In this document: positions 4,689 through 50,175 of the stretch, piece by piece
How the letters are laid out: each line of letters opens with the position of its first letter
How positions within the stretch are numbered: position 1 is the stretch's first letter
Assembly (NCBI GenBank): GCA_964599075.1
Contig: CAZREG010000001.1
Location: 123,017 to 187,016, forward strand
Source of the DNA: an uncultured Spirochaetaceae bacterium
GTDB taxonomy: Bacteria > Spirochaetota > Spirochaetia > DSM-27196 > SLST01
DNA: 64,000 nt
Direction of reading: 5' to 3'
Notes under the pieces: model-generated
Database searches by the model: none
What the model was told of the DNA's origin: nothing
What the model saw: only the letters and a program-made list of their open reading frames with translations
Program-made: the position numbers and the translations under genes

Positions 4689-4711
4689 CAGAGTTCAGGG
4701 CGCAGGCGTCC

Positions 4712-6907
4712 TCACTTCTCCGTCAGGCGGACGACGCCGTCCCAGGCTTTCGGGCGGTGATCCTCAGGCAGCGCCGCCATCTCGCGCGCCTGTCCGAGCA
4801 ACCGCGCGGCGGGGGCATCCACGTCGGCAATCCGGCCCCAGTGCTCGACCGCCTCACCAAATCGTCCGTCGTAGAACGCGGATAGGCCTGCCGCATACGT
4901 CTCCAGCACAACCCGACGCTCCTCATACTCTTCCCGGAACATGGGCTCGTAGACGGTGAGAGGCTCTTTTCGTCCGACGACCCCTATGCGGCCCAGCTCC
5001 CGTGCGGGGAATGCTTCCTGAGTTCTCGCATGGGTGTACTGAGAAACAAGGAGAAAGGTCCCAAAGAGCTTGTTGCTCCCCTCCAGGCGCGCGGCAAGAT
5101 TCATATGGTCGCCAAGCGCAGTGTAGTCAAACCGTGTCTCACTGCCAAAGTTCCCCACAGAGACATCACCCGTGTTGAGCCCGATCCTGGTGTAGATGGG
5201 CACCCCCACGCCGGTGGGCGGCGGGGCCATCCATCCGCTGCGGAGGGAAGAAAGGGCGCGCTGGCAGCCAAGTGCCGCCCGAACCGCGCGAGTTGCGTGA
5301 TCCTCGTAGCGGATAGGAGCGTTCCAGAAGGCAATGATGGCATCGCCCTCGAACTTGTCTATGGTTCCGCCCTCTTCTTGAATAATCCTCACAAGCGCGG
5401 AGAGATAGTCGTTGAGGAATCCAGAAAGCTGCTCCGGTTCCAGCGCCTCGCTGATAGTCGTGAACCCCTGAATATCGGAGAAAAACATGGTGAGCTCCCG
5501 CTTCTCTCCACCAAGTCGGAGTTGGGCGGGATTGTCCACCACCTGGTTGACCACGTCAGGACTCAGGTACTGTCCGAACGCGCTGCGAATGAAGCGCTTC
5601 TGTGCTCCTTCTGTGGCGTAGTTGGCAACGTTTGCGGCGGTAACTGCGACAAAGAGAACGACCACCGGCACCACAATCGGCACCCAGAGCGAGAGCAGGT
5701 AGCCAAGCGTCCCAAACCCAATGGCAAGCCCCACAAGACCGGTGAGGATCAGAACTTCAACCCACGGCTTGCGGGCGTAGCTGGCCAGAAACGCACCGAG
5801 CATGGCGAGCGCCAGGATGAGGATGACTCCGGCCCAGAGGGGCAACTCACGCATAAATTGCCCGGATAGCAGATTGTCCAGCATAGTCGCATGAACAGTC
5901 ACACCCGGGGCGCGTGGATCAAGGGGTGTTGGACGCAGATCGAGCAGGCCGCTTGCCGCCAACCCAAGGACCAGATGCTTTCCTGCGAGAGAGGCCGGAT
6001 CAAGGATGGGCTCGGCACCGCTTTGAACCTGAAATCCACTCACCGCCAGATCAAAGGCCGATATCTGCTGATGCCGGGGCGGTGATGACTCACCGGTGGC
6101 CGGATCGGATTGGGCGGGGGTCGTGTAACGCAACAGCACCTTCCCTCTCCGGTCCACGGGGATCGGCAGCTCGTTCAGCAACGCCCGCCCGCGCTCGTAG
6201 ACGAGTGTTGCAGAACCGTCGGTGATGGTCATGTAGGAGCCAAGCGCAAGTGAGGGCACCGGCTGGTCAAGGTGGTAGTTGTGCAGACGGTAGCGGCGAA
6301 ACACTCCGTCTTCATCATTTGCCTGATTCACAAAGGTGAGCAGAGCGTTGGAGGGGATGACGAACTCGAACGGAAAGCTCGCCCGCTCAAAGGTAAGATC
6401 AGACTGCGTAACAGAGAGGGCGTCCATGCCGGCAACGCCGAGCGCCGGACGAGAGACGTACGGCGGCCACGGCTCCTGCCCACCGGAACGCAACTCAGCG
6501 CCGTACACAACGTCCCCGTAGAGCTGTGCCGCGGTTCTCAGCACCTCGTCATCAGCGAAGGTTCCTGCACCCTCGTCCTCGAGAATGATGTCAAACGTGA
6601 AGCTCGCGGCACCGGCGGTGCGGGCGAAATCGATCATGAATCCGTAGAGCGATCGCGGCCAGGGCCAGCCGATACCGTTGACCTCCAGCATCTCTTCCAG
6701 GTCCGACTGCTCAACCATCACCAGCATCACGTCGTCGGTGGCGTCCGTGGGAGCGGCAAGGGTTCGAACCCGCAGGTCCCAGGTTGTGTTCTCTGCCGCC
6801 TGCAGGGCACCGGTGAGATAGAGCGTAAGCCCCACCGCCGCGCCAAGCGCGCCCACCAGAAGACTCCGGGAGAGTCGCGAGGAGAGGGCTCCGTGAGTTT
6901 CTGCCAT
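4712..6907 (-). CDS. CHASE2-sensor class III adenylate/guanylate cyclase
   Basis: 731 aa. N-terminal TM helix, a periplasmic region with the CHASE2-type GIGWPWPR motif, a TM cluster, then a cyclase domain (FFSDIQGFTTISE, GDAIIAFW, GDHMNLAARLEG). AAGGAG SD lies upstream of the ATG. Confidence 0.85.
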   Translation of the reverse strand: MAETHGALSSRLSRSLLVGALGAAVGLTLYLTGALQAAENTTWDLRVRTLAAPTDATDDVMLVMVEQSDLEEMLEVNGIGWPWPRSLYGFMIDFARTAGAASFTFDIILEDEGAGTFADDEVLRTAAQLYGDVVYGAELRSGGQEPWPPYVSRPALGVAGMDALSVTQSDLTFERASFPFEFVIPSNALLTFVNQANDEDGVFRRYRLHNYHLDQPVPSLALGSYMTITDGSATLVYERGRALLNELPIPVDRRGKVLLRYTTPAQSDPATGESSPPRHQQISAFDLAVSGFQVQSGAEPILDPASLAGKHLVLGLAASGLLDLRPTPLDPRAPGVTVHATMLDNLLSGQFMRELPLWAGVILILALAMLGAFLASYARKPWVEVLILTGLVGLAIGFGTLGYLLSLWVPIVVPVVVLFVAVTAANVANYATEGAQKRFIRSAFGQYLSPDVVNQVVDNPAQLRLGGEKRELTMFFSDIQGFTTISEALEPEQLSGFLNDYLSALVRIIQEEGGTIDKFEGDAIIAFWNAPIRYEDHATRAVRAALGCQRALSSLRSGWMAPPPTGVGVPIYTRIGLNTGDVSVGNFGSETRFDYTALGDHMNLAARLEGSNKLFGTFLLVSQYTHARTQEAFPARELGRIGVVGRKEPLTVYEPMFREEYEERRVVLETYAAGLSAFYDGRFGEAVEHWGRIADVDAPAARLLGQAREMAALPEDHRPKAWDGVVRLTEK

Positions 6908-13564: not shown

Positions 13565-13590
13565 CCGGCTACTTCAACCGGCTACTTCAA
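13565..13590. repeat. perfect 13-bp tandem duplication (CCGGCTACTTCAA x2) spanning the stop codon of the minus-strand cyclase gene
   Basis: Read directly: copies at 13565-13577 and 13578-13590. The TAG stop (13584-13582) lies in the second copy. Confidence 0.9.
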
Positions 13591-15627
13591 ACTGTCGAGT
13601 TCCCGGTAACCGTTGCGAAGATCCGACAGGTAGGTGTTCAGCTCTCCCGCCTTCTCGCGAAGCATTCGAATGCTCGCCACTTCCTCATCGCTGGAGAGGT
13701 TGCGCATCCGCGCCACATCAATCTCCATCTGTCGAAGCTGGTTGAGCCCTGAATTAAGCCGGAGACGCAGGATTTCCCGCTCATTCCTGAGCTCAGCGTA
13801 CGAGGTCTGTTGCTTCTCTATCTGCGCAATCGACTTGTCGTACTCTATACGCACTGCGTCGTTTCCGGCACTCGGGCGCTCCGCCTGCAGGCGGGCCAGG
13901 TCACTGTCCAGCTCGGCCACCGGTATACCGTCAACGATCTGATCTATCTCCCGTGTCTTCTGGTCAAGAAGCTTGATCTGCTCCACGTAGTTGTCCAGCA
14001 CCGGCAGAAAATCCTCCCCGAGCGGGGAGTGCTTTGGCATGGACTCGATCACCTTCACCAGTCTGCGACGAACGTTCTCCGCCTCACCGCCTGCCCCGGC
14101 CAGCTGCGTGACGGGTGCGGCCTCTTCAATGTGTCGCGGTCCTTTACGCCGGAACCGGCCCCCAATCCGGGCGCCAAGCTGCTTCAGTCTGGCAAGGAGA
14201 CGATGCTCCTTGGACTTGAACGCAGGCAGATGAGAGAGAACACCAATCGCCATGAAGCCTATTGGGAACAACGACCACATAAAGCCGGGACTGGTGATCA
14301 GGTTGATTCCCAGGAGCAGCCCGGAGGTAGCAATATTGGAAAAGAGGTGCCCCCACCAGGCTCCGCGCGCCTTGGAGAGCTTGCGATAGATGCGAAGCTG
14401 CTCTCGCGTAAGTCCCTCCGCACCGTCGAGCTCCTCAGTCTCACGCACCTTCTGCCGCACTCCGGTGTAGTGGCTCACGATTCCGATGCCCCAGCCGAGC
14501 ATCACGATAATCCACCACGGAAAGCCCCCGAAGCCGGAGAGTATGAGCCACAGAGCAATGAGACCACCGTTGACACCCAGATAGCTGACCAGATGGCCTG
14601 TGAAGTGAGCCTTCTCCTTCTCAGCTGCGTGGGCGGCGTAGTCCTTGTAGTCTTCAACCACCGGATCGTAGGCACCCGGCGCCGGTCCTGGATCGGAGAG
14701 CGCGCCCTCCCAGCGGGAGTCCTCCTGGGCCGCACGCTTGTCATCGTGGTGCCAGCGATGCTCATCCCACTTGTCCCATCGTTCCCAGTCGCCCCAGCTG
14801 TCTCTCGGTTCCTGCCGGCGTTCCTCACTTTCTACAATCGCCTGTGGCTGACGCGTGAGGAAGCCCTTATTCACAAGCTTCTCGAGAGCCGCATCCACCG
14901 CCGGTCCACGTCGGTCAAGTCGCGCGCGCGCCTCATTGACGGAGAGGCGACGGCCGGAGCGCTTAATAAGATCAAGCACCATGGGCTTGACCTGGTCAAA
15001 GGTCACGTCCGCAGAGGGTCTTGCCTGCTCCCCGGATGCCGTCGACGGCTCTATCGGCTGGAGCTCCGGCTGATCCTGTGCCCAACCGTCCGGGATGTAC
15101 TCTGCGTCCTTCGACACCGTGATCTCGTGAAGAGCCACCGTGCGCTCGAGTCCGCGAACGCGAATTGAACCCATCGGCTCTATGCCAAGATCGATCTTCC
15201 CTGAGATCAGACTCTGCACATCCTGGCTCAGCGCAACGCGTCCCGGATGGGCACTCTGCTGAACCCGTCCGGCGATCGTGACGCCCTCTCCGAACGCATC
15301 TCCCTCCACAAAGTAGATATCCCCTACGTGGAGGCCGACGCGCAGACTGAACCGCTGCCGGGGATTGCTGAGGTTGTGCTCACCAATCGCGGTCTGGATC
15401 TCGACCCCGGCCTTCACGGCGTGGACACTGTTGGGAAGCTCACAGAGACAGGTGTCGCCCACCGCACGCACCAACCGACCGTTATGAGCCTCTACAATGC
15501 GTTGGACAACACCGGCGTAGTGCTGCAACAGTTCGATGGTCTGTTCCTCGTTCTGCTGCATCATTCGTGAGAAGCCTACAATGTCGGTGACAAGCACGGC
15601 CGCAAGTCGATATTCGCGTGCATCCAT
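13582..15627 (-). CDS. multidomain class III cyclase: cyclase - wHTH-like - 2TM - 2TM - coiled coil
   Basis: Start trimmed to ATG 15627 (MDAREYRLAAVLVTDIVGFS...), because the longer ORF would run across the radA start. Cyclase motifs TDIVGFS and AVGDTCL. Two WWxx..GWGIG-type 2TM modules. Heptad-rich C-terminus. Confidence 0.75.
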   Translation of the reverse strand: MDAREYRLAAVLVTDIVGFSRMMQQNEEQTIELLQHYAGVVQRIVEAHNGRLVRAVGDTCLCELPNSVHAVKAGVEIQTAIGEHNLSNPRQRFSLRVGLHVGDIYFVEGDAFGEGVTIAGRVQQSAHPGRVALSQDVQSLISGKIDLGIEPMGSIRVRGLERTVALHEITVSKDAEYIPDGWAQDQPELQPIEPSTASGEQARPSADVTFDQVKPMVLDLIKRSGRRLSVNEARARLDRRGPAVDAALEKLVNKGFLTRQPQAIVESEERRQEPRDSWGDWERWDKWDEHRWHHDDKRAAQEDSRWEGALSDPGPAPGAYDPVVEDYKDYAAHAAEKEKAHFTGHLVSYLGVNGGLIALWLILSGFGGFPWWIIVMLGWGIGIVSHYTGVRQKVRETEELDGAEGLTREQLRIYRKLSKARGAWWGHLFSNIATSGLLLGINLITSPGFMWSLFPIGFMAIGVLSHLPAFKSKEHRLLARLKQLGARIGGRFRRKGPRHIEEAAPVTQLAGAGGEAENVRRRLVKVIESMPKHSPLGEDFLPVLDNYVEQIKLLDQKTREIDQIVDGIPVAELDSDLARLQAERPSAGNDAVRIEYDKSIAQIEKQQTSYAELRNEREILRLRLNSGLNQLRQMEIDVARMRNLSSDEEVASIRMLREKAGELNTYLSDLRNGYRELDSLK

Positions 15628-15722
15628 CTCTGAGTCACAATAGGCCGCCGGTCTGCCCGCGTCAAGCTTCGGGTGCGCCGCGGAGTGAAGTGCCAACCCA
15701 ATTTCCGTATACTCAACGGCGC

Positions 15723-17120
15723 ATGGCAAAGAAACGCACATCTGTATTCCTCTGCACGCAGTGCGGGCACAGTGAGAACAAGTGGCTCGGACGGTGTCCC
15801 GGCTGCGGCGAGTGGAATACGCTTGAAGAGCAGGCAGCGCAAGAATCCCCGTCCGGCACGACCGGTACAGCCGGCGCGCGGACCAACGGCCACCGCAGTG
15901 GTGCGCGGTCACAGCCGGCGGCCATCTCGGAGATAGAGACAGAGTCCGTAGAGCGAACCTCAACCGGAATTGGGGAGCTCGACCGCGTCCTTGGCGGCGG
16001 GCTGATAGGTGGAGCAACCGTCCTTGTCGGTGGGGAACCGGGAATAGGCAAATCTACCCTTATGCTGCAGATGGCAGCGCAGATACGCGGGGTGCGGGTG
16101 CTCTATGTGACCGGCGAAGAGTCTGCACAGCAGATCAAGGTCCGGGCGGACCGGCTTGGTGTCTCGAACCGGGAACTGCACGTTGTGGCAGAGAACCAGC
16201 TTGAACGGGTGCTTGCGGATATCCGGCCGGCAAAGGCCGGCGGTCGACCGCCCTACGACCTGCTCATTGTAGACAGCATCCAGACACTCTCTTCGGAAGA
16301 GGCAGGAGCCGTACCCGGCACCCCGAACCAGATCAAATATTGCACCTTTGAGCTCGCAGAGAGCGCCCGCGACTACGGCATGGCGATCTTCTTTGTGGCG
16401 CATGTGACCAAAGAGGGCAGCATTGCCGGACCAAAAACCATGGAGCACATGGTTGATACGGTGCTCTACTTCGAACAGAGCGACGACGACACCCGCTATC
16501 TGCGGGCTGCAAAGAACCGCTTCGGTTCAACCGATGAGATCGGTCTATTCACCATGCAGCAGTCAGGACTCGTGCAGATCACCGACCCCAACGGTGTCTT
16601 CCTCGTTCAGCGCAAGGGCGACCTCCCCGCCGGCGTGGTGGTGGCCCCGGTGATCGAGGGCTCACGTGTGCTGCTCGTAGAGGTGCAGGCGCTTACGGTC
16701 CCTGCCAAAGGCGGTCTAAGCCGGGTGTTCAGCGACAAGCTCGATTCCCGCCGGGTGAGTCGGGTTGCAGCCGTGCTGGAGAAACATGTGGGGCTGACGT
16801 TCAGCGACTACGACATCTATGTCAACATAGCCGGCGGGATGCGTATACGGGACGTGGGCGTGGAGCTGCCGCTCGCCCTCGCGCTCTACTCTGCCCGCAC
16901 CGATCGCTCGTTCCCGTCCCGGACGGCCGCAGCCGGTGAGCTCAGCCTGGCCGGAGAGATCCGTCCGGTGCCGCAGATGGCAAGACGGGCGCGGACTGCG
17001 ACAGAGGTTGGATTCACGCGAACCGTAGGGCCGGTCTCTACCCGCCAGGGCGAACAGAGTGCTCACGGGGAATGGAGCAATGCAGCTACGATCGGGAAAG
17101 CGGTGGAGCTGCTCTTCTAG
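15723..17120 (+). CDS. radA: DNA repair protein RadA
   Basis: Start at ATG 15723 (MAKKRTSVFLCTQCGHSENKWLGRCPGCGEWNTLEE zinc finger). Walker A GGEPGIGKST, KNRFG motif, Lon-like C-terminal domain. Confidence 0.95.
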   Translation: MAKKRTSVFLCTQCGHSENKWLGRCPGCGEWNTLEEQAAQESPSGTTGTAGARTNGHRSGARSQPAAISEIETESVERTSTGIGELDRVLGGGLIGGATVLVGGEPGIGKSTLMLQMAAQIRGVRVLYVTGEESAQQIKVRADRLGVSNRELHVVAENQLERVLADIRPAKAGGRPPYDLLIVDSIQTLSSEEAGAVPGTPNQIKYCTFELAESARDYGMAIFFVAHVTKEGSIAGPKTMEHMVDTVLYFEQSDDDTRYLRAAKNRFGSTDEIGLFTMQQSGLVQITDPNGVFLVQRKGDLPAGVVVAPVIEGSRVLLVEVQALTVPAKGGLSRVFSDKLDSRRVSRVAAVLEKHVGLTFSDYDIYVNIAGGMRIRDVGVELPLALALYSARTDRSFPSRTAAAGELSLAGEIRPVPQMARRARTATEVGFTRTVGPVSTRQGEQSAHGEWSNAATIGKAVELLF

Positions 17121-19272: not shown

Positions 19273-20678
19273 TCGCCCGCTCCTTCCTGCGAACGATACG
19301 ACTGCAGGCGCCAACTGGCAAGCCTCTGCTCCATGAAGCCGGGCGGCAGCTCTGCTTCAGCCTGCAGGAAGCTCGCCTGGGCAGTCTGGGTGCGGCCAAG
19401 AAGCTCCATCCGGGCTCCCAGGTAAAAGTACATACGAGCCTTCAGCGTGTTGTCCCGCAGGTCACGAAGCTGCGTAAGGACAAGCCCCTCGTTCGCCGGC
19501 TGAATGTAGTAGCGCATCATCTGGTACTCGATACTTTCACGGGGGAGGAAGTTCACCTCACCGGTCAGGAACCGGGAGGCCTCCGCAGTTCGTTCGTCGT
19601 GCATCATTGCGAGCGCAGCAAGAAGCGCGAACTCAACCCGCTGCTGATCCTCTTCGAATGCGGCCCGAAAGAGCGGTTCGGCTGCGTTGTAGTCCTCGAA
19701 CATGTAGAAGAGCACGGCTGTAGGAGCATATGCCGGAACGTAATCGGGCCGCCGGGCAAGCACAATTTGATAGTCAGCAAGCGCCCGCTCGTACTCGTCC
19801 ATGGCATCGAGCGCTCGTGCGCGGAGAGCGTAGCCGAGAAACCTGTCCCCATCCAATAAGACGGCGCGGTCAAAGTCCTCGGCCGCAGCAGCGTAGCGGC
19901 GCCGCTCAAAGCGGACCCGTCCCCGATCCACGTAGTGCCAGTAGTAGTCGGGCTCCAGCTCAATGGCACGGGTGAGATCGCCTTCCGCCTGCCCCAGTTC
20001 GAACTGCTGAACGTGAGCACGCGCCCGGTCACTGTATGCGAAGCTGTAGTCGGGCGAAACATCTATCGCGGCTGTGAGCTGCTCCTCCGCCTCCTGGTAG
20101 CGCCGCTGGCGAAGATAGACGTTCGCCAGACCAACCCGGGCAACCAGATTACCGGGGTCGGCGGCAACTGCGCTCTGAAAGCTGGCCTCCGCGGCACGGG
20201 TCGATCGCCCCACAAGCTGGAGCTCCCCCAGGGCAGAGAGCGCCTGGGCATTCTCCGGGTCTATGGCTACGATCTGTTCAAGAATAGTGCGCTGTCCCGC
20301 AGTGTCACCGCGGGAGGCCCGGACCAGGCTCAGGAGATAGAGCGCATCCGTGTTTTCCGGCTCCAAGGCCAGCACCTCCTGGAGCACCGTTTGTGCAGCG
20401 TCCAGCTCTCCGGCAATGAGATAAAGATTCGCCAGAAGGACCTGTGTCCCCGGATCGTCCGGATTGTTGAGGTTCGCCTCCTCATATGCGGCCATGGCGG
20501 CGGCAGGGTCACCGGTCTGAACGGAGAGACTGATCGCACGGTACGCCTCCGGGATCGTCAGGAGGTCCGGTGGCTGCTCCTCGGCCGGCGGAGGGCCTGG
20601 AGCGGTAACACAACCTCCCAGGGCCATGAGGGCCAGCAACGCTGCCGACAGGAGACCGAACAAAGGAATTCGTTTCAT
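19269..20678 (-). CDS. TPR-repeat lipoprotein
   Basis: Start at ATG 20678 (MKRIPLFGLLSAALLALMALGGC lipobox). Many 34-residue TPR-like repeats (A..Y..A...P....A...LA..Y). Confidence 0.8.
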   Translation of the reverse strand: MKRIPLFGLLSAALLALMALGGCVTAPGPPPAEEQPPDLLTIPEAYRAISLSVQTGDPAAAMAAYEEANLNNPDDPGTQVLLANLYLIAGELDAAQTVLQEVLALEPENTDALYLLSLVRASRGDTAGQRTILEQIVAIDPENAQALSALGELQLVGRSTRAAEASFQSAVAADPGNLVARVGLANVYLRQRRYQEAEEQLTAAIDVSPDYSFAYSDRARAHVQQFELGQAEGDLTRAIELEPDYYWHYVDRGRVRFERRRYAAAAEDFDRAVLLDGDRFLGYALRARALDAMDEYERALADYQIVLARRPDYVPAYAPTAVLFYMFEDYNAAEPLFRAAFEEDQQRVEFALLAALAMMHDERTAEASRFLTGEVNFLPRESIEYQMMRYYIQPANEGLVLTQLRDLRDNTLKARMYFYLGARMELLGRTQTAQASFLQAEAELPPGFMEQRLASWRLQSYRSQEGAGE

Positions 20679-20709
20679 CGCGTGGCGAATGATACTGACG
20701 CCCGGCGCG

Positions 20710-20738
20710 TTGCACAAGCGGATGGCCATTGCTACAAT
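20710..20738 (+). promoter_or_regulatory. putative sigma70-type promoter, short or absent leader
   Basis: TTGCAC (20710-20715), 17-nt spacer, TACAAT (20733-20738). The ATG at 20748 is only 9 nt after the -10 and has no SD. Confidence 0.4.
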
Positions 20739-20747
20739 CAGCGCCGC

Positions 20748-22580
20748 ATGTACTCACGTGTCAGCCGCGCCTACATCATCGTCCCGGCAATCTACATTGT
20801 CATCATTGTAGGACTGCTTCTCCTCCAGTTTGCGGGTGGCGAACGAATCACCCGGACCGTCGGTCAACTCGTTCTCCAGGCAACCCGCGCACCCACAACG
20901 GAAGACGGGCAGTCGTCGGTGCGCGCGGTTGAGCTGACATTCAACGGTGTTGAGTTTCTGTTCAGCGAGGATTCCGGTGCGTCGGTGACTCGCAACGGCA
21001 CAACCGTGCTCCTTGCAGTCGAACGCTACACTCTCTCGGAAGAAGGTTTTTCCATCCATTTCGCGGGAGGATTTCAGCTTAATGCGGTCACCACCAGTGA
21101 ACCGGTCCGTGAGCTCCAGCTCCGACTCAGGACTCCCGATGCCTCGGACGGTATCAGCGAGATCGCGATTCCGTTCGCGCTGACCGGCGAAAGCGAGCTC
21201 AGCGACAGGTCTACAGCCTCCTTTGCGTTTATTGAGAACGGCGTCGACGGGTTCTATCTCACCGTTCCTCCGGGAGCTGAAATCGATCTTCAGACGCGTG
21301 CGATCCGTCTAACCCCGGCGTCAGCCGGTGATGCGATCCGCTACGTGGAGGCGGTGGAGGGAGACCCGGCTCAGGTATCCGCCTGGTTCGAGGATCCTGC
21401 CACCACGATCAGCGACGCACAGATTGCCACCATCATTGAGCAGTACCTGGACTCCGCCTACCGTGGCTGGGACGCAGGACGATACAACCAGGCCGCGCTA
21501 ACCTGGGACAGAGAGGATGCGCCTGCAGCGTTCTCTGAGGCGGCGCTGACCGCATACCTTGCTGAGGCGTGGGAACGCGGCAGTTACGAGCGTGCGTTTG
21601 CCGAGATGCGCCGCGCAACCGACCTTCACCCGGATGCGCTGGGCCTGCTCTCTTCAGTCTACCTTGGTAATTTGAGCGAGGTGCACGCGCAGCAGCTCGC
21701 TGCAGACGGTGCCCGGGCCGGCGCACTGACCGGGCAGATCGAAGCGGGTGATCCTACGGTCTTCCGCGATCCGCAGCTTCTCCGCTTCGCAGCGACCCGA
21801 GGAAGCGAAGAGCTCTACAGCGGCGTCCTTGCACTGCTGGCCTCAATCGATCCACGGACCGTTGATGCGCACACGCTGGTCGGTCTGGCGGCCAACCTCT
21901 TTCTGCTCCAGGCCCCGGACGGGCGCGCTGCCGAGATCGCCGGCCGGCTCGGGCCCCTGGTGCAGCAGTCGCTGTTCGCAACCGTAGTGCGAACCGGCAA
22001 CGGGTTCTTCCTTCAGAGTTCTCCGGGTCAGATCGATGTTCGACTCAGCCTGATCGCCGGCCGTGCCCTGGAGGCGTACGGGCGCTCGACGGAGACAGCG
22101 CGAGTGGTCCGCGCAGGGCGGAATCTGATCGCCAGTGCCCTGGCCCAGGCGGATGTGAACGGGGTGCTCCCCTCGGCTCTGCTGCTTCGTGGCGAACAGG
22201 CCGAACCGTCCGGCGGGGGTCTCTACCCTGAAGAGGTCTACCATCTTCTGGACCCCGCGCCTGCCTACCCGCGCGTTCGATCGCTCTATCGGCAGCTTGG
22301 AAGCGGTCACTGGACCTACACTGCCGTTCCCGTGCAGATTGCCCAGCTCAACGAGCAGCAGTGGGAGTTTATTATTGAGTACCCCAGACTCCGCACGCAC
22401 TACCTGATCTTCTTTGGCATCCCGGAGTTCACGGAGATGGAGCTTTTTGGACAGGTCTGGCGAAACGCGCCGGATTTCGAGATCTACAGCAAGGGACGAC
22501 AGTACGATCCAGACACTCAGGCGCTTCTCATCAAGTACTACGATGACTCCACGCGCGGGCGGATCGTGCTGTTCTACTGA
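20748..22580 (+). CDS. membrane-anchored protein of unknown function
   Basis: ORF 19935-22580 trimmed to ATG 20748 (MYSRVSRAYIIVPAIYIVIIVGLLLLQF, single TM helix). The upstream part is antisense to the TPR gene. No family recognised. Confidence 0.6.
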   Translation: MYSRVSRAYIIVPAIYIVIIVGLLLLQFAGGERITRTVGQLVLQATRAPTTEDGQSSVRAVELTFNGVEFLFSEDSGASVTRNGTTVLLAVERYTLSEEGFSIHFAGGFQLNAVTTSEPVRELQLRLRTPDASDGISEIAIPFALTGESELSDRSTASFAFIENGVDGFYLTVPPGAEIDLQTRAIRLTPASAGDAIRYVEAVEGDPAQVSAWFEDPATTISDAQIATIIEQYLDSAYRGWDAGRYNQAALTWDREDAPAAFSEAALTAYLAEAWERGSYERAFAEMRRATDLHPDALGLLSSVYLGNLSEVHAQQLAADGARAGALTGQIEAGDPTVFRDPQLLRFAATRGSEELYSGVLALLASIDPRTVDAHTLVGLAANLFLLQAPDGRAAEIAGRLGPLVQQSLFATVVRTGNGFFLQSSPGQIDVRLSLIAGRALEAYGRSTETARVVRAGRNLIASALAQADVNGVLPSALLLRGEQAEPSGGGLYPEEVYHLLDPAPAYPRVRSLYRQLGSGHWTYTAVPVQIAQLNEQQWEFIIEYPRLRTHYLIFFGIPEFTEMELFGQVWRNAPDFEIYSKGRQYDPDTQALLIKYYDDSTRGRIVLFY

Positions 22581-43549: not shown

Positions 43550-44113
43550 GTGGGTAGTACAACAGAGGAGCCGGAGCGCTCGCTGATCCGGCGTGCCCGG
43601 CAGGGCAATCGGGACGCGTTCGCGCTGATCGTACGACTCTACTACCAGCGAGTGTACCGGGTCGCCGTCCGCTTTGTTCGAAACGATGACGACGCCGCTG
43701 AGCTGACCCAGGAGACGTTTATCAGAGCCATGCGATCACTACACAGGTTCGATGGCGAGCGAGCGCTTTTCCCGTGGCTCTACCAGATAGTCCGGAACCT
43801 CAGCCTGAACAGGATCGCGCGCGTTCGGAACCGGGAGAGCGGGCTTCCCGACTACGATCTTGAAGACCGACGGATCCCCGGTCCTGAACAGATGGCCATA
43901 CGAGATGAGGACGGCCGAGCGGTTCAGGCCGCTATCCTGCGCCTTTCCGGGCAGGCTCAGGAGATTATCCGCCTTGCCCATTACGAGGAATGTTCGTACC
44001 AGGAGATGGCCGAAATACTCGACATACCGGTAGGAACCGTGATGTCCCGGCTTTACAATGCCAGAAAGAAGCTGCGAGAGATACTCGCAGCGGAGGACGA
44101 AGATCATGAGTGA
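43550..44113 (+). CDS. ECF (group IV sigma-70) RNA polymerase sigma factor
   Basis: 187 aa, GTG start. Region 2 (DAAELTQETFIRA, FRPWLYQIVRN-like FPWLYQIVRNL) and region 4 (SYQEMAEILDIPVGTVMSRLYNARKKL). Confidence 0.85.
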   Translation: MGSTTEEPERSLIRRARQGNRDAFALIVRLYYQRVYRVAVRFVRNDDDAAELTQETFIRAMRSLHRFDGERALFPWLYQIVRNLSLNRIARVRNRESGLPDYDLEDRRIPGPEQMAIRDEDGRAVQAAILRLSGQAQEIIRLAHYEECSYQEMAEILDIPVGTVMSRLYNARKKLREILAAEDEDHE

Positions 44114-44552
44114 TCGACATATCCCTGATGATATAAAACTGCGGATCCAGGCGCTCGTTGACAACGAGCTTCCCGCTTCAGAGATACGGCCGACTCTCGA
44201 GCTCATTCGAGCAGATACCGAGCTGCAGGACGAGTACGTGGAGCTTCTGAGAATCAAGCGGAGAATCGGTCCCGGGCCGGCCACCAGGATTCCTGAAGCG
44301 TGGGTGGAACAGGCGGAGAAAAGTATTCGTCGGCGAAGCGGACGAATAGTTGGGATTATCCTGCTTGTCGGCAGCTATGTGCTCCTTCTCGGCTACGCGC
44401 TGTTCACCTTGTTCAGTCGTCCGGGGACTCCGCTCATCGTGGCGATCCTCATCTCCTCCTCGGTGCTCGGATTCCTGTTCCTGCTGTTCAATGCCATTGC
44501 CGACCGGATGCGTGAGCGGCGCGATGATCGTTACAGAGAGGTAATGCGATGA
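44106..44552 (+). CDS. putative anti-sigma factor, two TM helices, no zinc motif
   Basis: Start at ATG 44106 (8-nt overlap with the sigma gene). N-terminal IQALVDNELPASE anti-sigma-like helix. Two adjacent TM helices joined by a very short loop (SRPGTP). Confidence 0.6.
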   Translation: MSDRHIPDDIKLRIQALVDNELPASEIRPTLELIRADTELQDEYVELLRIKRRIGPGPATRIPEAWVEQAEKSIRRRSGRIVGIILLVGSYVLLLGYALFTLFSRPGTPLIVAILISSSVLGFLFLLFNAIADRMRERRDDRYREVMR

Positions 44553-44872
44553 TTCAGTCAACAACGGAGACGCTTCCCGGATACGAGATCACGGAGGTGC
44601 TGGGTCTCGTCCGCGGGAACACCATTCGGGCCCGCCATCTGGGCAAAGATATCGCGGCCACGTTCAAGAACATGGCAGGTGGAGAGATCACCGACTATAC
44701 AAAGATGATGGGAGAGAGCCGGGAACAGGCGCTCGACCGGATGGTCGAAGAGGCCGAGCTGCTTGGGGCGGATGCGATCCTTGGGGTCCGATTCACGACG
44801 AGCTCCGTGATGCAGGGAGCGGCCGAGATTCTGGTCTACGGCACCGCAGTGAAAATTCGGTCAGTCGGCTGA
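44549..44872 (+). CDS. YbjQ/UPF0145-family protein
   Basis: 107 aa. TTETLPGYEI...VRGNTIRARHLGKDI...GADAILGVRF...GTAVKI. ATGA overlap with the anti-sigma gene. Confidence 0.85.
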   Translation: MIQSTTETLPGYEITEVLGLVRGNTIRARHLGKDIAATFKNMAGGEITDYTKMMGESREQALDRMVEEAELLGADAILGVRFTTSSVMQGAAEILVYGTAVKIRSVG

Positions 44873-44898: not shown

Positions 44899-44916
44899 TC
44901 ACAGTTTATCCACAAG
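44899..44916. repeat. 18-nt repeat copy 1 (TCACAGTTTATCCACAAG), contains a perfect DnaA-box 9-mer TTATCCACA (44906-44914)
   Basis: Read directly. 15/18 identical to 45122-45139. The 11-nt core TTATCCACAAG is identical. Confidence 0.9.
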
Positions 44917-45121: not shown

Positions 45122-45139
45122 TCACGAGTTATCCACAAG
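45122..45139. repeat. 18-nt repeat copy 2 (TCACGAGTTATCCACAAG), contains TTATCCACA (45129-45137) and is the 3' end (LVDNS*) of the minus-strand regulator gene
   Basis: Read directly. Same orientation as copy 1, 223 bp away. Confidence 0.9.
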
Positions 45140-45808
45140 GTCTTTTTGACTCACACCAAGCATGTATCCTCGGCCGCGCAAGCTTCTGACTTCGAATGAG
45201 AGCGGGCACTCACCTGGCAAATCTGCTAAACCCCGACGCAGACGAGAGATACTCATGTCAAGGGCTCGGCTCCCTGACTGCTCCGGTGCCAGGCCGGCCA
45301 GACTGATCAGAACAGACCTGGACACCACCTGCTCATGACGCAGGACGAGCACACAAAAGAGTTGGTAGGCCGGCCCCGTCAGTTGCACGGACCAGTTCTT
45401 TTCCGGGCCGGCTACGGTACATCTGCCGTGACCCCAGGTAACAACAGCCCGACCAAAATCAAGGCGAGAGTGACCCAGAATGCGGCGGACGCGAAACCTC
45501 AGTTCCTCTTCCGTCCATGGCGCTACCAGCACGTCGTCTGCGGCGGGCGCCCCGGCATAGAATTGGAGCTGTTCAGGTTGTACAAACACAAGTAGCGGGA
45601 GCCTGCGAAACGGGTCTGGAAGGCGGTGCGCGGTATGCAGATCGGTGACAAGCAACAGGTCACCAGGACCCGGGGCCACAGCAAACTCAGGTACCGTGAG
45701 AGCAACCGACCAGCGATCTTTCAGAGCAAGGCGAACCCTCGCTGCCTCCGTCACAGAGGCAAGAACAACACGTATCGATCTCCTGGATCGCTCAGACGCT
45801 GCTCCCAT
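45122..45808 (-). CDS. OmpR/PhoB-type winged-helix regulator with an atypical receiver-like N-terminus
   Basis: 228 aa. C-terminal trans_reg_C-like region (LTGPAYQLFCVLV...RALDMSISRLRRGL...SLRGRGYML). The N-terminal domain lacks the usual DD pair, and the KP motif reads APW by eye. Confidence 0.7.
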   Translation of the reverse strand: MGAASERSRRSIRVVLASVTEAARVRLALKDRWSVALTVPEFAVAPGPGDLLLVTDLHTAHRLPDPFRRLPLLVFVQPEQLQFYAGAPAADDVLVAPWTEEELRFRVRRILGHSRLDFGRAVVTWGHGRCTVAGPEKNWSVQLTGPAYQLFCVLVLRHEQVVSRSVLISLAGLAPEQSGSRALDMSISRLRRGLADLPGECPLSFEVRSLRGRGYMLGVSQKDLVDNS

Positions 45809-45821
45809 GGGCCCCTCACAT

Positions 45822-46631
45822 TCAGCTTGAGGAATCCTCCTGAAGCTTCTTCTTCAAGGCCTCAAGTTCCTCATCCACCTCTCCGCCGCCTTCACTGGAG
45901 GCACCCGGCTGAGCCTGGCCGCTCGCAGATCCGGAGGAGTTTGCTCCGCGTTGATCCTCAATGGCAACGCGTTTCTTCAGGTCTTCGAGCATGGCTTCAG
46001 TGTTCGTGCTCCCGGCTTCCAGCTGTGCGAACTGCTCCTCGAGTGTTCCGCTGCCTGTTGAGGCCTCAATCTCCAGCATGGCGTCGTTTTCGGCCTCCAG
46101 CTGATCCATCCGCTGGGACATCTGCTCGAACGCCTCGAACGCTGAGGTGTCGTTCATCCCGCCGATGGTCTCGTTTATACGCTTCTGGGCCTCAGCGCGT
46201 TTGGCCCGTGCGACAAGGAGATTCTTCTTCCGCTGAGCCTCTTCAATCTTGCTCTGCAGTCCCCGGAGCGCGCTTTTCAGTTTCTCGACGGATTCGTGCT
46301 GCGCTTCCCACTGCTCTTTATACTCGGTCGCGGTTTTGTCGAACTCCTGCTTACGAAGCAGTGCTTCTTTGGCCAGATCGTCCTTGCCCGCGCGCACGGC
46401 GAGCATCGCCTTTCGCTCCCACTCCTGCGACGCGGCGAGATTCTCTTTTACCTGACGCTCGATCTTTTTCTCATCTGCAATGGCAGCTGCCACGCTCTTC
46501 TTGGACTCTATCAGTTGCTGATTCATGTCCACGATAAGCTGGTTCAGCATCTTCTCAGGATTCTCCGCCTTGCTGATCATATCGTTGAGATTCGATTTCA
46601 CGACTCGTCTGAATCGGTCAAAAATACCCAC
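45822..46631 (-). CDS. pspA: PspA/IM30-family protein with an extended C-terminal tail
   Basis: 269 aa. MGIFDRFRRVVKSNLNDMISKAENPEKMLNQLIVDM is the canonical PspA N-terminus, followed by long coiled coils and an extra ~40-aa Gly/Ser-rich tail ending in VDEELEALKKKLQE. Confidence 0.9.
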   Translation of the reverse strand: MGIFDRFRRVVKSNLNDMISKAENPEKMLNQLIVDMNQQLIESKKSVAAAIADEKKIERQVKENLAASQEWERKAMLAVRAGKDDLAKEALLRKQEFDKTATEYKEQWEAQHESVEKLKSALRGLQSKIEEAQRKKNLLVARAKRAEAQKRINETIGGMNDTSAFEAFEQMSQRMDQLEAENDAMLEIEASTGSGTLEEQFAQLEAGSTNTEAMLEDLKKRVAIEDQRGANSSGSASGQAQPGASSEGGGEVDEELEALKKKLQEDSSS

Positions 46632-46641
46632 AGTCGCCTCC

Positions 46642-47034
46642 TTATGTGGCTGTTCGGTACTTGGCCAGGCGCGAGAAGTGCTGAGCCAGGGCCAGGCCGG
46701 TTGAATCCAGGGACGCCTGGAACTCCTCCATATCCATCGTGGGCAGTTCCAGTGTATCTATCAAAATAACGTCCTGATCCTCGAGCGCGTATGCTCCATG
46801 AACCATTTCCGCATTCAGTTCGAGCAGCTCCATAAAGAACGACTCCCGGTCTTGCTCAGGGATGCGCATCACCTTCGCGCGCAGGGTGACAAGATCATCA
46901 TCCACGTAAACGATCACAGCCTTGAGACCGTTTTCTTCCTGGGAGATGAGCCACATGTTCTCTCCAACTTCTTCATACTGCACGTCAAGATTGATGAAGA
47001 ATCCCTCGATCTTCTCCTTCGCCGGCGTACTCAT
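46642..47034 (-). CDS. YbjN-like (type III secretion chaperone-like fold) protein
   Basis: 130 aa, GGAAGGAGG SD. Pattern MWLISQEENGLKAVIVYVDDDLVTLRAKV...FFMELLELNAEMVHGAYALE is typical of the YbjN family by eye. Confidence 0.65.
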   Translation of the reverse strand: MSTPAKEKIEGFFINLDVQYEEVGENMWLISQEENGLKAVIVYVDDDLVTLRAKVMRIPEQDRESFFMELLELNAEMVHGAYALEDQDVILIDTLELPTMDMEEFQASLDSTGLALAQHFSRLAKYRTAT

Positions 47035-47063
47035 GCCACCTCCTTCCGGTCTGGCGTATTGAG

Positions 47064-47072
47064 AGTATAACA
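47064..47072 (-). promoter_or_regulatory. putative extended -10 promoter element (TGTTATACT) upstream of the YbjN-like/pspA genes
   Basis: Minus-strand TGnTATACT about 30 nt upstream of ATG 47034. No good -35. Confidence 0.3.
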
Positions 47073-47101
47073 GATATTTCTGAGGAAATTGTTACCGAAG
47101 A

Positions 47102-47653
47102 TCAGCCGAGGAAAACTTGTCCGGCCGTATCGATCGCAAGCACCGTTTTGCACTCTGAACAGCGGAATCGCCCCGCCTTCTGTGCCTTTAATTTCTTGCT
47201 GCAGATAGGACACTTGAAGATCTTTGGGAACACATCGGACTTTTGAGTGGCTCCACCCTTGGAGAAGAACTCTGCCGCCTCTTCAAGATTGTCCTTGATA
47301 GTGAAGAACTGGGAGAAACCGAGAAGCTGGAAAACCTCGTAGACCTTCGGCTGGATCTCGAGCAGGACAAGATCACCACCGCGGGGACGTACGAGCTTCA
47401 GGAATGCAGTGAAGGAGCCAATGCCGGTACTGGAAACGTAGGTCAATCCGGCGCAGTGAACGATGAGCCGCGTGAAACCTGCTTCAATCGCAAGGTTCAC
47501 TCGCTTCTGGAACGAGTTCGAGTTGTACGTATCTATGTAACCGGTGAGAAAGAGAACTAGTCCGCCCTCTACGTTGTCAAGCTTCTGAAGCTTGATCTTG
47601 AGGCTGTCGTCTTTCTCGTCGTCAAAGCCAGGTACAATGTCGTTATTTGCCAT
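47102..47653 (-). CDS. STAS-domain protein (anti-sigma-factor-antagonist type) with a C-terminal zinc ribbon
   Basis: Start at ATG 47653 (AAGGGA SD). STAS core with the serine motif YVSSTGIGSF. C-terminus FKCPICSKKLKAQKAGRFRCSECKTVL (CxxC...CxxC). Confidence 0.75.
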   Translation of the reverse strand: MANNDIVPGFDDEKDDSLKIKLQKLDNVEGGLVLFLTGYIDTYNSNSFQKRVNLAIEAGFTRLIVHCAGLTYVSSTGIGSFTAFLKLVRPRGGDLVLLEIQPKVYEVFQLLGFSQFFTIKDNLEEAAEFFSKGGATQKSDVFPKIFKCPICSKKLKAQKAGRFRCSECKTVLAIDTAGQVFLG

Positions 47654-47695
47654 GCTTTCCCTTCGTTTACCGCTTCCCCGCAAACGATAAATAGA

Positions 47696-47733
47696 ATACT
47701 CCGGAGTATGAAAGCTTGATCTGGTTTTGTCAA
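47696..47733 (-). promoter_or_regulatory. putative sigma70 promoter of the STAS gene with a 14-bp perfect palindrome over the -10
   Basis: Minus strand: TTGACA (47733-47728), 17-nt spacer, CATACT (47710-47705). The palindrome ATACTCCGGAGTAT is at 47696-47709. Confidence 0.4.
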
Positions 47734-47758
47734 ACCTCCATTCCCTGAACTTACCACA

Positions 47759-48543: not shown

Positions 48544-49026
48544 ATGGCAGCTAAACACACCAGAAGGGTACTTCTGTTGATCGGCTTTATTCTCTTCTCT
48601 CATGCCGTGCCGGCACGCTCACCGGAACAGCTTGAGGATACGATAGACTTTGAAACGTCGCTGGAGACGATTGCTGAAACCGTTCGCACCGGGCAACTCG
48701 AACAGATCGATCCCGAGCGCTACTTCATGCTCACGGGTTCGGTTGCCTCTATCATTGTCTTTGACCCGAACCCCGAGAGCTTTCAGGCCGTTGTAGAACT
48801 TGTTGCCGGTGGATGGGATGGGCTTGACTCCATCTCGGTGAGTAGGGTCTACGTGCTCCTTCAGGGTCCGGAGTTTGCCGAAAGAGTACCCGAGCGCCCA
48901 CGTCCCGGCGCGGAGCCCGGGACCATTGAGGTCCACGAACGGATACTCGTGATTGGACCGTTCGTAGGGACGGCGCAACTCCAGGACGAAGAGCTCGGAG
49001 TAATCCAGGCTGTCCGAATCAGATAA
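48544..49026 (+). CDS. secreted protein of unknown function
   Basis: 160 aa with a signal-peptide-like N-terminus (RVLLLIGFILFSHAVPA). No family recognised. Confidence 0.5.
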   Translation: MAAKHTRRVLLLIGFILFSHAVPARSPEQLEDTIDFETSLETIAETVRTGQLEQIDPERYFMLTGSVASIIVFDPNPESFQAVVELVAGGWDGLDSISVSRVYVLLQGPEFAERVPERPRPGAEPGTIEVHERILVIGPFVGTAQLQDEELGVIQAVRIR

Positions 49027-49035
49027 GCCATAAGC

Positions 49036-50175
49036 TCAGTCGTCAAAGTCTATATTGTCTGCAGTTATTCTGTACCCGTCAGAGAGAAGCAGCGCCCGCC
49101 AGACTACATTTTTCAGTTCACGAACATTCCCGGGCCACTGGTAGTCTGAAAGCCGGTTGATCGCCGGACTTGTAAACTCTGGAAGTACCGCCATCTGCTC
49201 GTCCTGCGCAATCCTGATCCGAAAATAATCAGCAAGAACCGGAATGTCCTGCCGCCGCTCGGAAAGCGGAGCGACACGAATCCGGCCCACGTTCAGTCTA
49301 TAGAACAGATCCTTTCGAAAACGTTCCCGGGTGAGCTCCATCTGAAGGTCTCTGTTCGTTGCTGAGATGATGCGAAATTTCACCTGCCGGTGCTCCGCAT
49401 CTCCAATCCGCGTAAATCGTTTTGTCTCGAGCACCCTCAACAGCTTGACCTGAGCCCGTGAACTGAGCTCTCCCACCTCATCAAGAAAGAGAGTACCGCC
49501 GTGAGCTTTCTCCAGCGCTCCGGCGCGCGTTCGTGCGTCAGTAAACGCGCCCTTCGCCGTACCAAAGAGTTCCGACTCTATGAGGGTGTCCGGAATTGCA
49601 CCGCAGTTGAGCGCGATGAACGGCCCGTTGGCCCAGGGCGAGAGCCGGTGAAGCGCGACTGCAACGAGTTCCTTTCCCACTCCACTGGCTCCGGTAACGA
49701 GGATTGGTGCTCCGTATCTACCGTACTTCTCTATGTACTGGCGCAGGCGCATCGTGGGGACGCTTACCCCAATGATCTCGGGAATAACGGCGTCGTTAGG
49801 GGGGCCGAACGGCACTACAGCGGATGTAATGGCATCAAGAAAAGATGTCCGAAGCGGATTGGCCTGAAGCGGAAGCGCCACCACGTCAAAGGCGCCATGT
49901 TTCACCGCCGCGACGATGCGCTTTGGTTCCGTCTGAGCCGTAAATGCGACTACCGGAGGTGCCGTAGCGGCGGAACTCAAGGACGAAAGAAGTTCGAACG
50001 AACCGATCGGCTCAATATCCATGTTGAGGAAGATGACGTCCGGCATGGCAGCCTTGACGTGATCAACGGCGAGTGCGTCATACTTGTGCGAAAGTACTCG
50101 GTGGTCCCAGTCGAGGAAGAGTTCGACAGCGGAGGCTATCTCGGGATCATTATCGATAACCAGAACTACAGCCAT
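49036..50175 (-). CDS. sigma-54-dependent activator (REC + AAA+), no C-terminal DNA-binding domain
   Basis: 379 aa. Walker A GASGVGKE, GAFTDA (GAFTGA variant), Walker B LFLDEVGE, NVRELKN sensor II. The protein ends about 20 aa after that, so there is no room for a Fis-type HTH. Confidence 0.85.
   Translation of the reverse strand: MAVVLVIDNDPEIASAVELFLDWDHRVLSHKYDALAVDHVKAAMPDVIFLNMDIEPIGSFELLSSLSSAATAPPVVAFTAQTEPKRIVAAVKHGAFDVVALPLQANPLRTSFLDAITSAVVPFGPPNDAVIPEIIGVSVPTMRLRQYIEKYGRYGAPILVTGASGVGKELVAVALHRLSPWANGPFIALNCGAIPDTLIESELFGTAKGAFTDARTRAGALEKAHGGTLFLDEVGELSSRAQVKLLRVLETKRFTRIGDAEHRQVKFRIISATNRDLQMELTRERFRKDLFYRLNVGRIRVAPLSERRQDIPVLADYFRIRIAQDEQMAVLPEFTSPAINRLSDYQWPGNVRELKNVVWRALLLSDGYRITADNIDFDD

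Follow-up and report, generated by a model that had tools for sequence, protein, structure and literature searches.

A STAS-zinc-ribbon protein and a pseudo-receiver regulator accompany the CesT/Tir-PspA dyad in a conserved operon of Spirochaetia

The 64-kb stretch of contig CAZREG010000001.1 analysed here (the window), from an uncultured Spirochaetaceae bacterium, carries a minus-strand operon in which the PspA/IM30 gene and its CesT/Tir-type, YbjN-fold neighbour are preceded by the gene for a STAS protein with a C-terminal zinc ribbon (STAS-ZnR) and followed by that for a winged-helix regulator with a degenerate receiver half (REG). By sequence comparison, the four-gene set is a real operon kept across free-living and gut spirochaetes. 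The comparison of loci further shows that a conserved, predicted sigma-70 promoter drives STAS-ZnR, the CesT/YbjN-fold gene, pspA and REG as one operon, that a sigma-54 activator without a helix-turn-helix (HTH) domain is its fixed upstream neighbour, and that REG and this activator are gained and lost together. We read the whole as a Spirochaetia-specific elaboration of the CesT/Tir-PspA membrane-stress dyad, and place the probability of this reading at about 0.45. An earlier note on this DNA had described the four genes as a PspA module with non-canonical partners; its observation was confirmed, and its interpretation is partly supported.

In order of transcription, the operon comprises:
47102-47653, minus strand: STAS-ZnR, first gene of the operon (Pfam STAS, PF01740)
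46642-47034, minus strand: CesT_Tir_1/YbjN-fold protein, 130 aa (Pfam PF22550)
45822-46631, minus strand: PspA/IM30, 269 aa, GTG start (Pfam PF04012)
45122-45808, minus strand: REG, a Trans_reg_C regulator with a pseudo-receiver (Pfam PF00486)

All four open reading frames (ORFs) lie co-directionally where the earlier note had placed them, and the Pfam matches agree with its assignment of a STAS protein with a C-terminal CxxC...CxxC motif, a 130-aa YbjN-like protein and a 269-aa PspA. The spacers between them, read from the window sequence, are 67, 10 and 13 nt long, and in many of the lineages whose loci were compared STAS-ZnR lies 4-13 nt from the next gene or overlaps it. Two scans provided the comparison: a genome scan seeded with the CesT-like protein (40 loci; 632 CesT-like homologues) and a metagenome scan seeded with STAS-ZnR alone (80 loci, 42 of them with at least 2.3 kb downstream). 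The relatives of the window are Spirochaetota metagenome-assembled genomes, and the matching contigs come from a microbial-mat metagenome. STAS-ZnR stood directly upstream of the dyad in 22 of 22 spirochaete-type loci of the genome scan, one of them labelled Solibacteraceae, probably through a binning error, and in none of the other loci. The four-gene arrangement is not a chance one, since it recurs in these 22 genome loci and in most of the 80 metagenome loci; the adjacency thus extends well beyond this genome, to which a refutation of the earlier note would have confined it.

In the metagenome loci with sufficient downstream sequence, pspA lies within two genes of STAS-ZnR in 36 of 42, and the order after STAS-ZnR is as follows:
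26 of 42 loci: CesT, PspA, REG
5 of 42 loci: PspA, REG, without a CesT gene
5 of 42 loci: CesT, PspA (among them L072, which has a REG missed by tblastn)
3 of 42 loci: REG only
3 of 42 loci: none of CesT, PspA and REG

Where the CesT gene has been lost, in at least three lineages, pspA follows STAS-ZnR directly across a 6- to 72-nt spacer (mostly 6 nt). PspA and REG were found near STAS-ZnR in 20/24 and 21/24 loci, respectively, whereas the flanking genes for YbjQ and an extracytoplasmic function (ECF) sigma factor were kept in only 3-4/24, so that the association amounts to more than regional synteny; a short-chain dehydrogenase/reductase (SDR) gene was present in 10/29. The cultured Salinispira pacifica has SDR, STAS, CesT and PspA without REG or the activator, and locus L045, in a 5.15-Mb genome, has the activator, a conserved hypothetical gene (orf160), STAS and REG without the dyad. 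Median identity across loci is 80% for STAS-ZnR, 62% for PspA, 50% for the CesT-like protein and 31% for REG. STAS-ZnR not only heads the operon but is also its most conserved gene, and it persists where PspA is lost, which runs counter to its treatment in the earlier note as a mere added input.

STAS-ZnR matched PF01740 (E 2e-21), with weak zinc-ribbon matches over residues 152-181, and its TIGR00377 score of 57.1 bits lies just above the NCBIfam threshold of that anti-sigma-antagonist superfamily (53.45). Its start is likely the ATG at 47653 and not the TTG at 47683, because the resulting 183 aa is the length of essentially all homologues. An acidic N-terminal peptide, MxNNDIVPGFDxEKDxSLKI, is conserved, and C148, C151, C165, C168 and the stretch S74-S75-T76-G77 are invariant, with a mean column identity of 88-89%. 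Ser75, invariant in 40 STAS-ZnR sequences, aligns in the family profile alignment with the phosphorylated serine of TM1442 (Ser59) and SpoIIAA (Ser58). In the AlphaFold2 model (pLDDT 79), the ribbon forms a separate beta module, and the best Foldseek matches of the model were SpoIIAA, RsbV and TM1442, with a target-normalised TM-score of about 0.8. An exhaustive search with a limit of E <=1e-30 returned 176 representative clusters, most of them full-length, at about 180 aa and 38-62% identity. Within the wider family, P0244 (285 aa) and P0245 (314 aa) are tandemly duplicated STAS(-ZnR) fusions with two units of NNDIVxGFD peptide plus STAS. Two relatives with 45-49% identity, L126:3777-4361 and L129:3315-3860, each adjoin a DSPc-like gene; these DSPc matches are weak (E 1.6e-4 and 1.6e-6) and below the gathering score. 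As a hint from sequence, the family may perhaps be phospho-regulated by a Cys-based, dual-specificity-like phosphatase of non-PP2C type.

The CesT-like protein scored 96.6 bits against PF22550 (cut-off 27; E 1.5e-27) and also matched YbjN, PF10722 (E 1.6e-6); against PDB sequences, its profile gave only a marginal match, to the YbjN-family protein Tll0839 (E 0.1). A gene of this kind directly precedes pspA in Spirochaetota, Gemmatimonadota, Myxococcota, Acidobacteriota (Holophagae) and Chloroflexota. In the window, a CesT/Tir-superfamily gene is co-directional with and directly upstream of pspA across a 10-nt gap, and the pair is the published CesT/Tir-PspA dyad (Ravi et al. 2024, PMC11237479), known from many phyla both on its own and as part of larger operons. 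The earlier note had proposed a new PspA partner set; the YbjN-like/PspA half of this set is thus known and has its own Pfam family, and the novelty lies with STAS-ZnR and REG. The closest studied pair is BacA (CesT-like)/BacB (PspA-like) of P. aeruginosa, for which a BacA crystal structure exists, loss of bacA leads to accumulation of the Bac partners, and a BacA-BacB interaction was reported as unpublished (PMC10948618). PspA itself matched PF04012 over residues 2-221 (E 2e-52; 178.4 bits, cut-off 33.9) and fell below the NCBIfam equivalog cut-offs, with 165 bits against 243 for the proteobacterial PspA model TIGR02977 and a score likewise below that for LiaH. Its N-terminal amphipathic helix, read from the sequence as MGIFDRFRRVVKSNLNDMISKAE, is conserved in 80/80 orthologues. 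The C-terminus (window 45822-46000) carries a Gly/Ser-rich linker and then a second copy of an LExLKKKL motif; a comparison of the C-termini of the 80 orthologues indicated that this duplicated tail is clade-specific and has also appeared independently in Myxococcota PspA.

REG matched PF00486 (E 1.7e-9; 38.1 bits, cut-off 26.2), with no Response_reg match in Pfam. The earlier note had judged by eye that its receiver-like half lacks the acidic pair and the KP lysine, and both the 54-sequence alignment and the profile-to-PDB alignment, from which we read the residues, bear this out. The family profile aligns full-length with MtrA (2gwr; E 2.5e-24), and the matches to MtrA, RegX3 and PrrA cover its positions 7-210. 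The REG consensus has Gly/Ala at the acidic pair (Ser in the window protein), Pro at the phospho-Asp position (Thr in the window protein), Gly at the Thr position and Glu at the Lys position (Ala in the window protein); phospho-Asp, Thr and Lys are not kept in any aligned orthologue. The recognition helix SRAxDMxVSxLRxKL and the wing RGxGY are intact, and the best-conserved stretch, PVIAYGP..FLxGCxDYLxEPWxxxEL, corresponds to the alpha4-beta5-alpha5 dimerisation face. In the AlphaFold2 model, based on a three-sequence alignment, the winged-helix half (residues 120-220) reached pLDDT 80-92, and the receiver half, below 50, is unusable. REG evolves very fast, and a word-seeded search found only three relatives. 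No partner histidine kinase was found within 10 kb on either side. On the alignments, REG is a phosphorylation-incompetent pseudo-receiver regulator of the OmpR/PhoB family, in agreement with the earlier note.

That note overlooked a conserved gene 1.3 kb upstream of the operon, the sigma-54 activator present near STAS-ZnR in 26 of the 29 metagenome loci sampled for it. This neighbourhood includes two features:
49036-50175, minus strand: sigma-54 activator with REC, AAA+ and lid, no HTH (Pfam and NCBIfam)
48544-49026, plus strand: orf160, conserved hypothetical protein in convergent orientation to the activator, its N-terminus resembling a signal peptide

The AAA+ domain of the activator matched PF00158 (E 5e-61). 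A lid follows, beyond which the protein stops at residue 379; we take the activator to resemble the FlgR/CtcC type without a DNA-binding domain. orf160, which has no Pfam family, adjoins the activator in 22/29 loci. In the clade of the window, the activator receiver reads FLN for LLD at the phospho-Asp (Asn) and ALPL for KP (no Lys); distant orthologues keep the canonical DD..D..T..K residues. Since the receivers of REG and the activator are both degenerate, both REC-like domains of the neighbourhood are phospho-dead in this clade. Among the 35 loci whose flanks extended far enough to either side, 31 had both REG and the activator, 4 had neither, and none had one alone (Fisher p 2e-5, which ignores phylogeny). 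The loci with neither fall in at least two lineages by PspA sequence type, the Salinispira group and a termite-gut-like group. All four keep STAS-CesT-PspA, and dyad-less loci keep both regulators; REG thus tracks the activator, not PspA.

The promoter assignment rests on the following elements:
47705-47734, minus strand: sigma-70-type operon promoter with (T)TTGACAAA as -35, a 17-nt spacer and CATACT as -10 (consensus scan)
47035-47101, minus strand: 67-nt spacer with an extended -10-like TGTTATACT and a strong Shine-Dalgarno sequence GGAAGGAGG (read from the sequence)

The consensus scan places TTGACA-17-CATACT at 47733-47705. In 85/90 loci, TTTGACAA occurs in the 200 nt preceding the STAS-ZnR start, and the rest of the 691 kb of loci holds just 11 further copies; across loci, the promoter takes the form GTTTGACAAA-N17-TAnnAT, and the sole TTTGACAAA in the window is that of the operon promoter. 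Its near-consensus sequence suggests strong, possibly constitutive transcription. The earlier note had described this promoter together with a palindrome. Both are present, the perfect 14-nt palindrome ATACTCCGGAGTAT (47709-47696) overlapping the -10, and the palindrome is not conserved in the orthologous loci compared and is unique to this genome. The spacers, TGTTATACT and the Shine-Dalgarno sequences likewise read as that note described; the GGTAACA..TGTTATACT arrangement is common only to the window and its three closest relatives (L001, L003 and L005), making the extended -10 a possible internal promoter of a close clade. We rejected the -10 palindrome and the spacer AAGCTT as operator candidates, neither being conserved in orthologous loci, and found no conserved direct-repeat operator upstream of the operon. 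As a separate observation, a sigma-28 -10-like element, CCGATA or GCCGATA(A/C), is enriched upstream of STAS-ZnR in other loci (20 loci against about 5 expected, among them L022, L059-L062, L067, L070 and L071), where it sits on one side or the other of the sigma-70 promoter; the window lacks it upstream of STAS-ZnR.

In the mechanism that we propose, PspA would be the ESCRT-III-like membrane-repair effector, and the CesT-like protein would serve as its dedicated chaperone or antagonist, keeping PspA soluble by analogy with what has been proposed for YjfI/YjfJ and BacA/BacB. STAS-ZnR may act as a SpoIIAA-like protein-protein switch whose invariant serine is perhaps the phosphorylation target of a kinase encoded elsewhere; the zinc ribbon and the acidic peptide at the N-terminus would be its docking modules for the gating of PspA or the regulators. 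REG is predicted to bind DNA without phospho-input, and, because REG and the activator are gained and lost together, they probably form one transcriptional output arm, on which PspA may feed back as PspA does on PspF. A more specific version, which we regard as improbable, is a 'split PspF', with REG supplying enhancer binding and the activator the AAA+ motor, the two paired through the alpha4-beta5-alpha5 faces of their REC and pseudo-REC domains and the complex controlled by PspA, with the CesT-like protein as buffer and a phosphorylatable STAS-ZnR switch as gate. If it were true, spirochaetes would run a feedback loop between PspA and a bacterial enhancer-binding protein from parts entirely unlike the proteobacterial ones.

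Several results weigh against reading the operon as an elaborated membrane-stress dyad. STAS-ZnR is about 79-81% identical in the dyad-less loci L045, L060, L066, L094, L110, L116 and L125, and, its identity being equally high there, the constraint on it is independent of an adjacent pspA. The STAS-PspA link has a single evolutionary origin and is confined to Spirochaetia, and neither STAS nor REG accompanies any of the dyads, about 15 in number, from outside the spirochaetes. Four distant STAS-ZnR relatives (40-58% identity) that we examined lie in unrelated contexts with no recognisable pspA adjacent. Pfam scans of most of the larger ORFs of the window found no RsbW-like (GHKL) kinase and no PP2C phosphatase. 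The PspA C-terminal features show no co-variation with the presence of the CesT gene among the 80 orthologues. The four loci lacking both REG and the activator represent about two to three independent losses, a number that the co-variation statistic does not take into account, and a sigma-70 promoter so near the consensus points to constitutive expression more than to induction by stress. Moreover, no sigma-54 promoter was detected in any locus, either in the window or in scored scans of 104 loci: TGGCAC-N5-TTGC had 62 matches in the window against 66 expected, all of them outside the intergenic regions that precede the psp genes, and the 104-locus scans gave no positional enrichment upstream of STAS, CesT or pspA. 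A TGGCAC..CAGCA sequence at about -70 of pspA was discarded as a sigma-54 site, being imposed by the coding sequence for LALAQH. A PspF-like circuit acting on this operon is consequently not supported.

The main rival treats STAS-ZnR, REG and the activator as an independent regulatory system, such as a partner-switch on a sigma-54 regulon for envelope or motility functions, into which the CesT-PspA dyad was inserted as a co-transcribed passenger. We consider this unlikely on balance, but the equal conservation of STAS-ZnR at loci without an adjacent dyad keeps it a serious contender. It would account for the persistence of STAS-ZnR, REG and the activator together without the dyad in L045, L060 and L094, and of STAS-ZnR alone in L110, L116 and L125; for a conservation of STAS-ZnR that exceeds that of PspA; for an activator as tightly linked to STAS-ZnR (26/29) as PspA is (20/24); and for the two divergent relatives that adjoin DSPc-like phosphatase genes and not pspA. 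A passenger would not, however, be expected to remain right behind STAS-ZnR in 36/42 sampled loci or to keep the direct STAS-pspA order through CesT loss in several lineages, and the four loci without REG and the activator, all of which keep STAS-CesT-PspA, make the STAS-PspA link independent of the regulators.

If instead REG were a self-contained psp autoregulator in the manner of ClgR or LiaR, switched by PspA binding and with the activator irrelevant, the model would be essentially that of the earlier note. The position of REG as the last gene of the operon, 13 nt past pspA, its intact DNA-binding half and the recurrence of psp-operon transcription factors under PspA control (PspF, ClgR; PMC11237479) are consistent with it. 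Yet REG occurs in loci without PspA and is missing from four that have it, the REG-less loci L044 and L084 carry the same conserved promoter element, and candidate operators fail in that no direct repeat is conserved and the -10 palindrome is private to this genome, all of which leaves autoregulation by REG rather improbable. A lower probability still attaches to the absence of any functional coupling, in which gene order would merely reflect a slowly rearranging region of the Spirochaetia chromosome. Genes for FapA, a ParA-like and a CtpB-like protein, RsmE, WecG, FxsA, an LptF/G-like protein, DnaJ and EPSP synthase are indeed also syntenic among the genome of the window, Salinispira and L045, but the operon has very short or overlapping spacers behind a single conserved promoter, the cluster outlasts its YbjQ/ECF and SDR flanks, and L045 is locally rearranged around an intact STAS-REG pair. 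Classical PspF-type control, with the activator driving pspA from a sigma-54 promoter under inhibition by PspA, is largely refuted and very improbable, for although the activator is a conserved neighbour whose AAA+ domain scores 235 bits against TIGR02974 (pspF), this is below the pspF cut-off of 443.55, a receiver without an HTH is the opposite of PspF, and the TGGCAC-N5-TTGC and positional scans and the coding-imposed -70 site speak against such a promoter.

An elaborated dyad also has to be set beside known systems. The E. coli YjfI-YjfJ and P. aeruginosa BacA-BacB dyads have the same type III secretion system (T3SS) chaperone/YbjN-fold gene upstream of, and co-transcribed with, a PspA/IM30 gene (PMC11237479; PMC10948618), although YjfI and BacA belong to another CesT-like family (DUF2170) and the protein described here to CesT_Tir_1. 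Described extensions of the dyad are band-7/flotillin, AAA+, YqiJ and polyamine-metabolism genes and a ribbon-helix-helix factor; here they are STAS-ZnR and REG, with the sigma-54 activator nearby. 'STAS' and 'OmpR' are absent from the main text of PMC11237479, as are 'STAS' and 'Trans_reg_C' from its supplement, and our literature search found no paper linking STAS, a zinc ribbon and PspA in spirochaetes. STAS-ZnR and REG are accordingly candidates for Spirochaetia-specific dyad partners not reported before.

With the PspF-PspABC system of E. coli and Yersinia, the operon shares a PspA effector and a sigma-54 activator gene near the psp genes, so that PspA/AAA+ feedback is conceivable; it differs in having no PspB or PspC, an activator with REC and without HTH, and a sigma-70-type promoter, no -24/-12 element having been found. 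Like the actinobacterial ClgR-PspA-PspM-PspN and the Firmicute LiaIH-LiaFSR systems, it encodes a transcription factor with pspA and has lineage-specific partners, but the regulator here is OmpR-type with a dead receiver, as opposed to the Cro-like ClgR and the phosphorylatable LiaR, and, unlike LiaIH-LiaFSR, the operon comes without a histidine kinase, LiaF, LiaI or Toastrack. None of the PspB, PspC, LiaF and LiaI families occurs within 10 kb on either side, as the earlier note had stated for pspB, pspC, pspF, liaF and liaI; the nearby sigma-54 activator is not PspF proper.

STAS-ZnR resembles SpoIIAA, RsbV and TM1442 in its STAS fold, its invariant aligned serine and its passing of the TIGR00377 cut-off, and differs from them in its invariant N-terminal peptide and C-terminal zinc ribbon. 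It is encoded with pspA, whereas SpoIIAA and RsbV are encoded with a sigma/anti-sigma pair, and no RsbW/SpoIIAB-type kinase or PP2C was found within the 64 kb. REG shares OmpR/PhoB homology, a degenerate receiver and an intact winged helix with ChxR and HP1043/HsrA (PMC3960148, PMC8345958, PMC12632262); those are orphan global regulators, whereas REG is operon-embedded, fast-evolving and co-varies with an HTH-less activator. Finally, the P. aeruginosa ExsC-ExsD-ExsA cascade, in which the anti-anti-activator has a T3SS-chaperone fold (cited in PMC10948618), is a precedent for a CesT-fold protein in a transcriptional partner-switch, but that cascade is bound up with a secretion apparatus and an AraC-type activator, and no T3SS is present here.

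Downstream of the operon we noted a DnaA-box-like motif, TGTGGATAAC(C/T)TGTG, just past REG, or past pspA in REG-less loci; its presence in the latter indicates that it is not a REG site. The window has copies at 45129-45137 and 44906-44914 on the minus strand, which are also the only perfect TGTGGATAA in the 64 kb. In loci L001-L125, the motif lies about +1800 to +3000 nt from the STAS-ZnR start, usually as two same-orientation copies some 200-225 nt apart, each followed by a weaker copy at 11-bp phase, with an AT-rich TAATT..AATTA element between the pair. TGTGGATA occurs 95 times in 740 kb of loci against 23 expected, 69 of these at the DnaA-box-like position and strand. The region had no Rfam or tRNA match, and there is no dnaA in the window. 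From its sequence, the motif may be a DnaA-binding array, whether for promoter control, as a datA/DARS-like site or as something akin to an origin.

Further afield, an operon for the ECF sigma factor, a membrane anti-sigma-like protein and YbjQ (UPF0145) occupies 43550-44872 on the plus strand, convergent on the psp operon and kept in close relatives only; Rfam and tRNA searches found no RNA gene in the REG-YbjQ gap. Nucleotide second-messenger genes, encoding a PAS-GAF-GGDEF protein and two cyclases, one a CHASE2-adenylate/guanylate cyclase and the other carrying a 2TM domain, cluster at 3234-6907 and 13582-16017, and an 881-aa ORF at 19935-22580 has no Pfam family. The low G+C content at 46-48 kb was dismissed as an anomaly, since it is explained by amino-acid composition and G+C at third codon positions is normal.

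To our knowledge, membrane repair by PspA/IM30/ESCRT-III proteins is universal, and its sensing and control are known in three lineages only. The operon would add a fourth, clearly delimited PspA control set, spanning a whole spirochaete class that includes the cultured Alkalispirochaeta and Salinispira, the latter, naturally without both regulators, being a ready comparison strain. It has three oddities: STAS-ZnR is more strongly constrained than PspA itself, the chaperone-fold partner can disappear without breaking the STAS-PspA link, and the presence of a DNA-binding pseudo-response-regulator tracks that of a sigma-54 activator without DNA-binding domain. If these links hold, STAS partner-switching and pseudo-receiver signalling would extend to the control of membrane stress.

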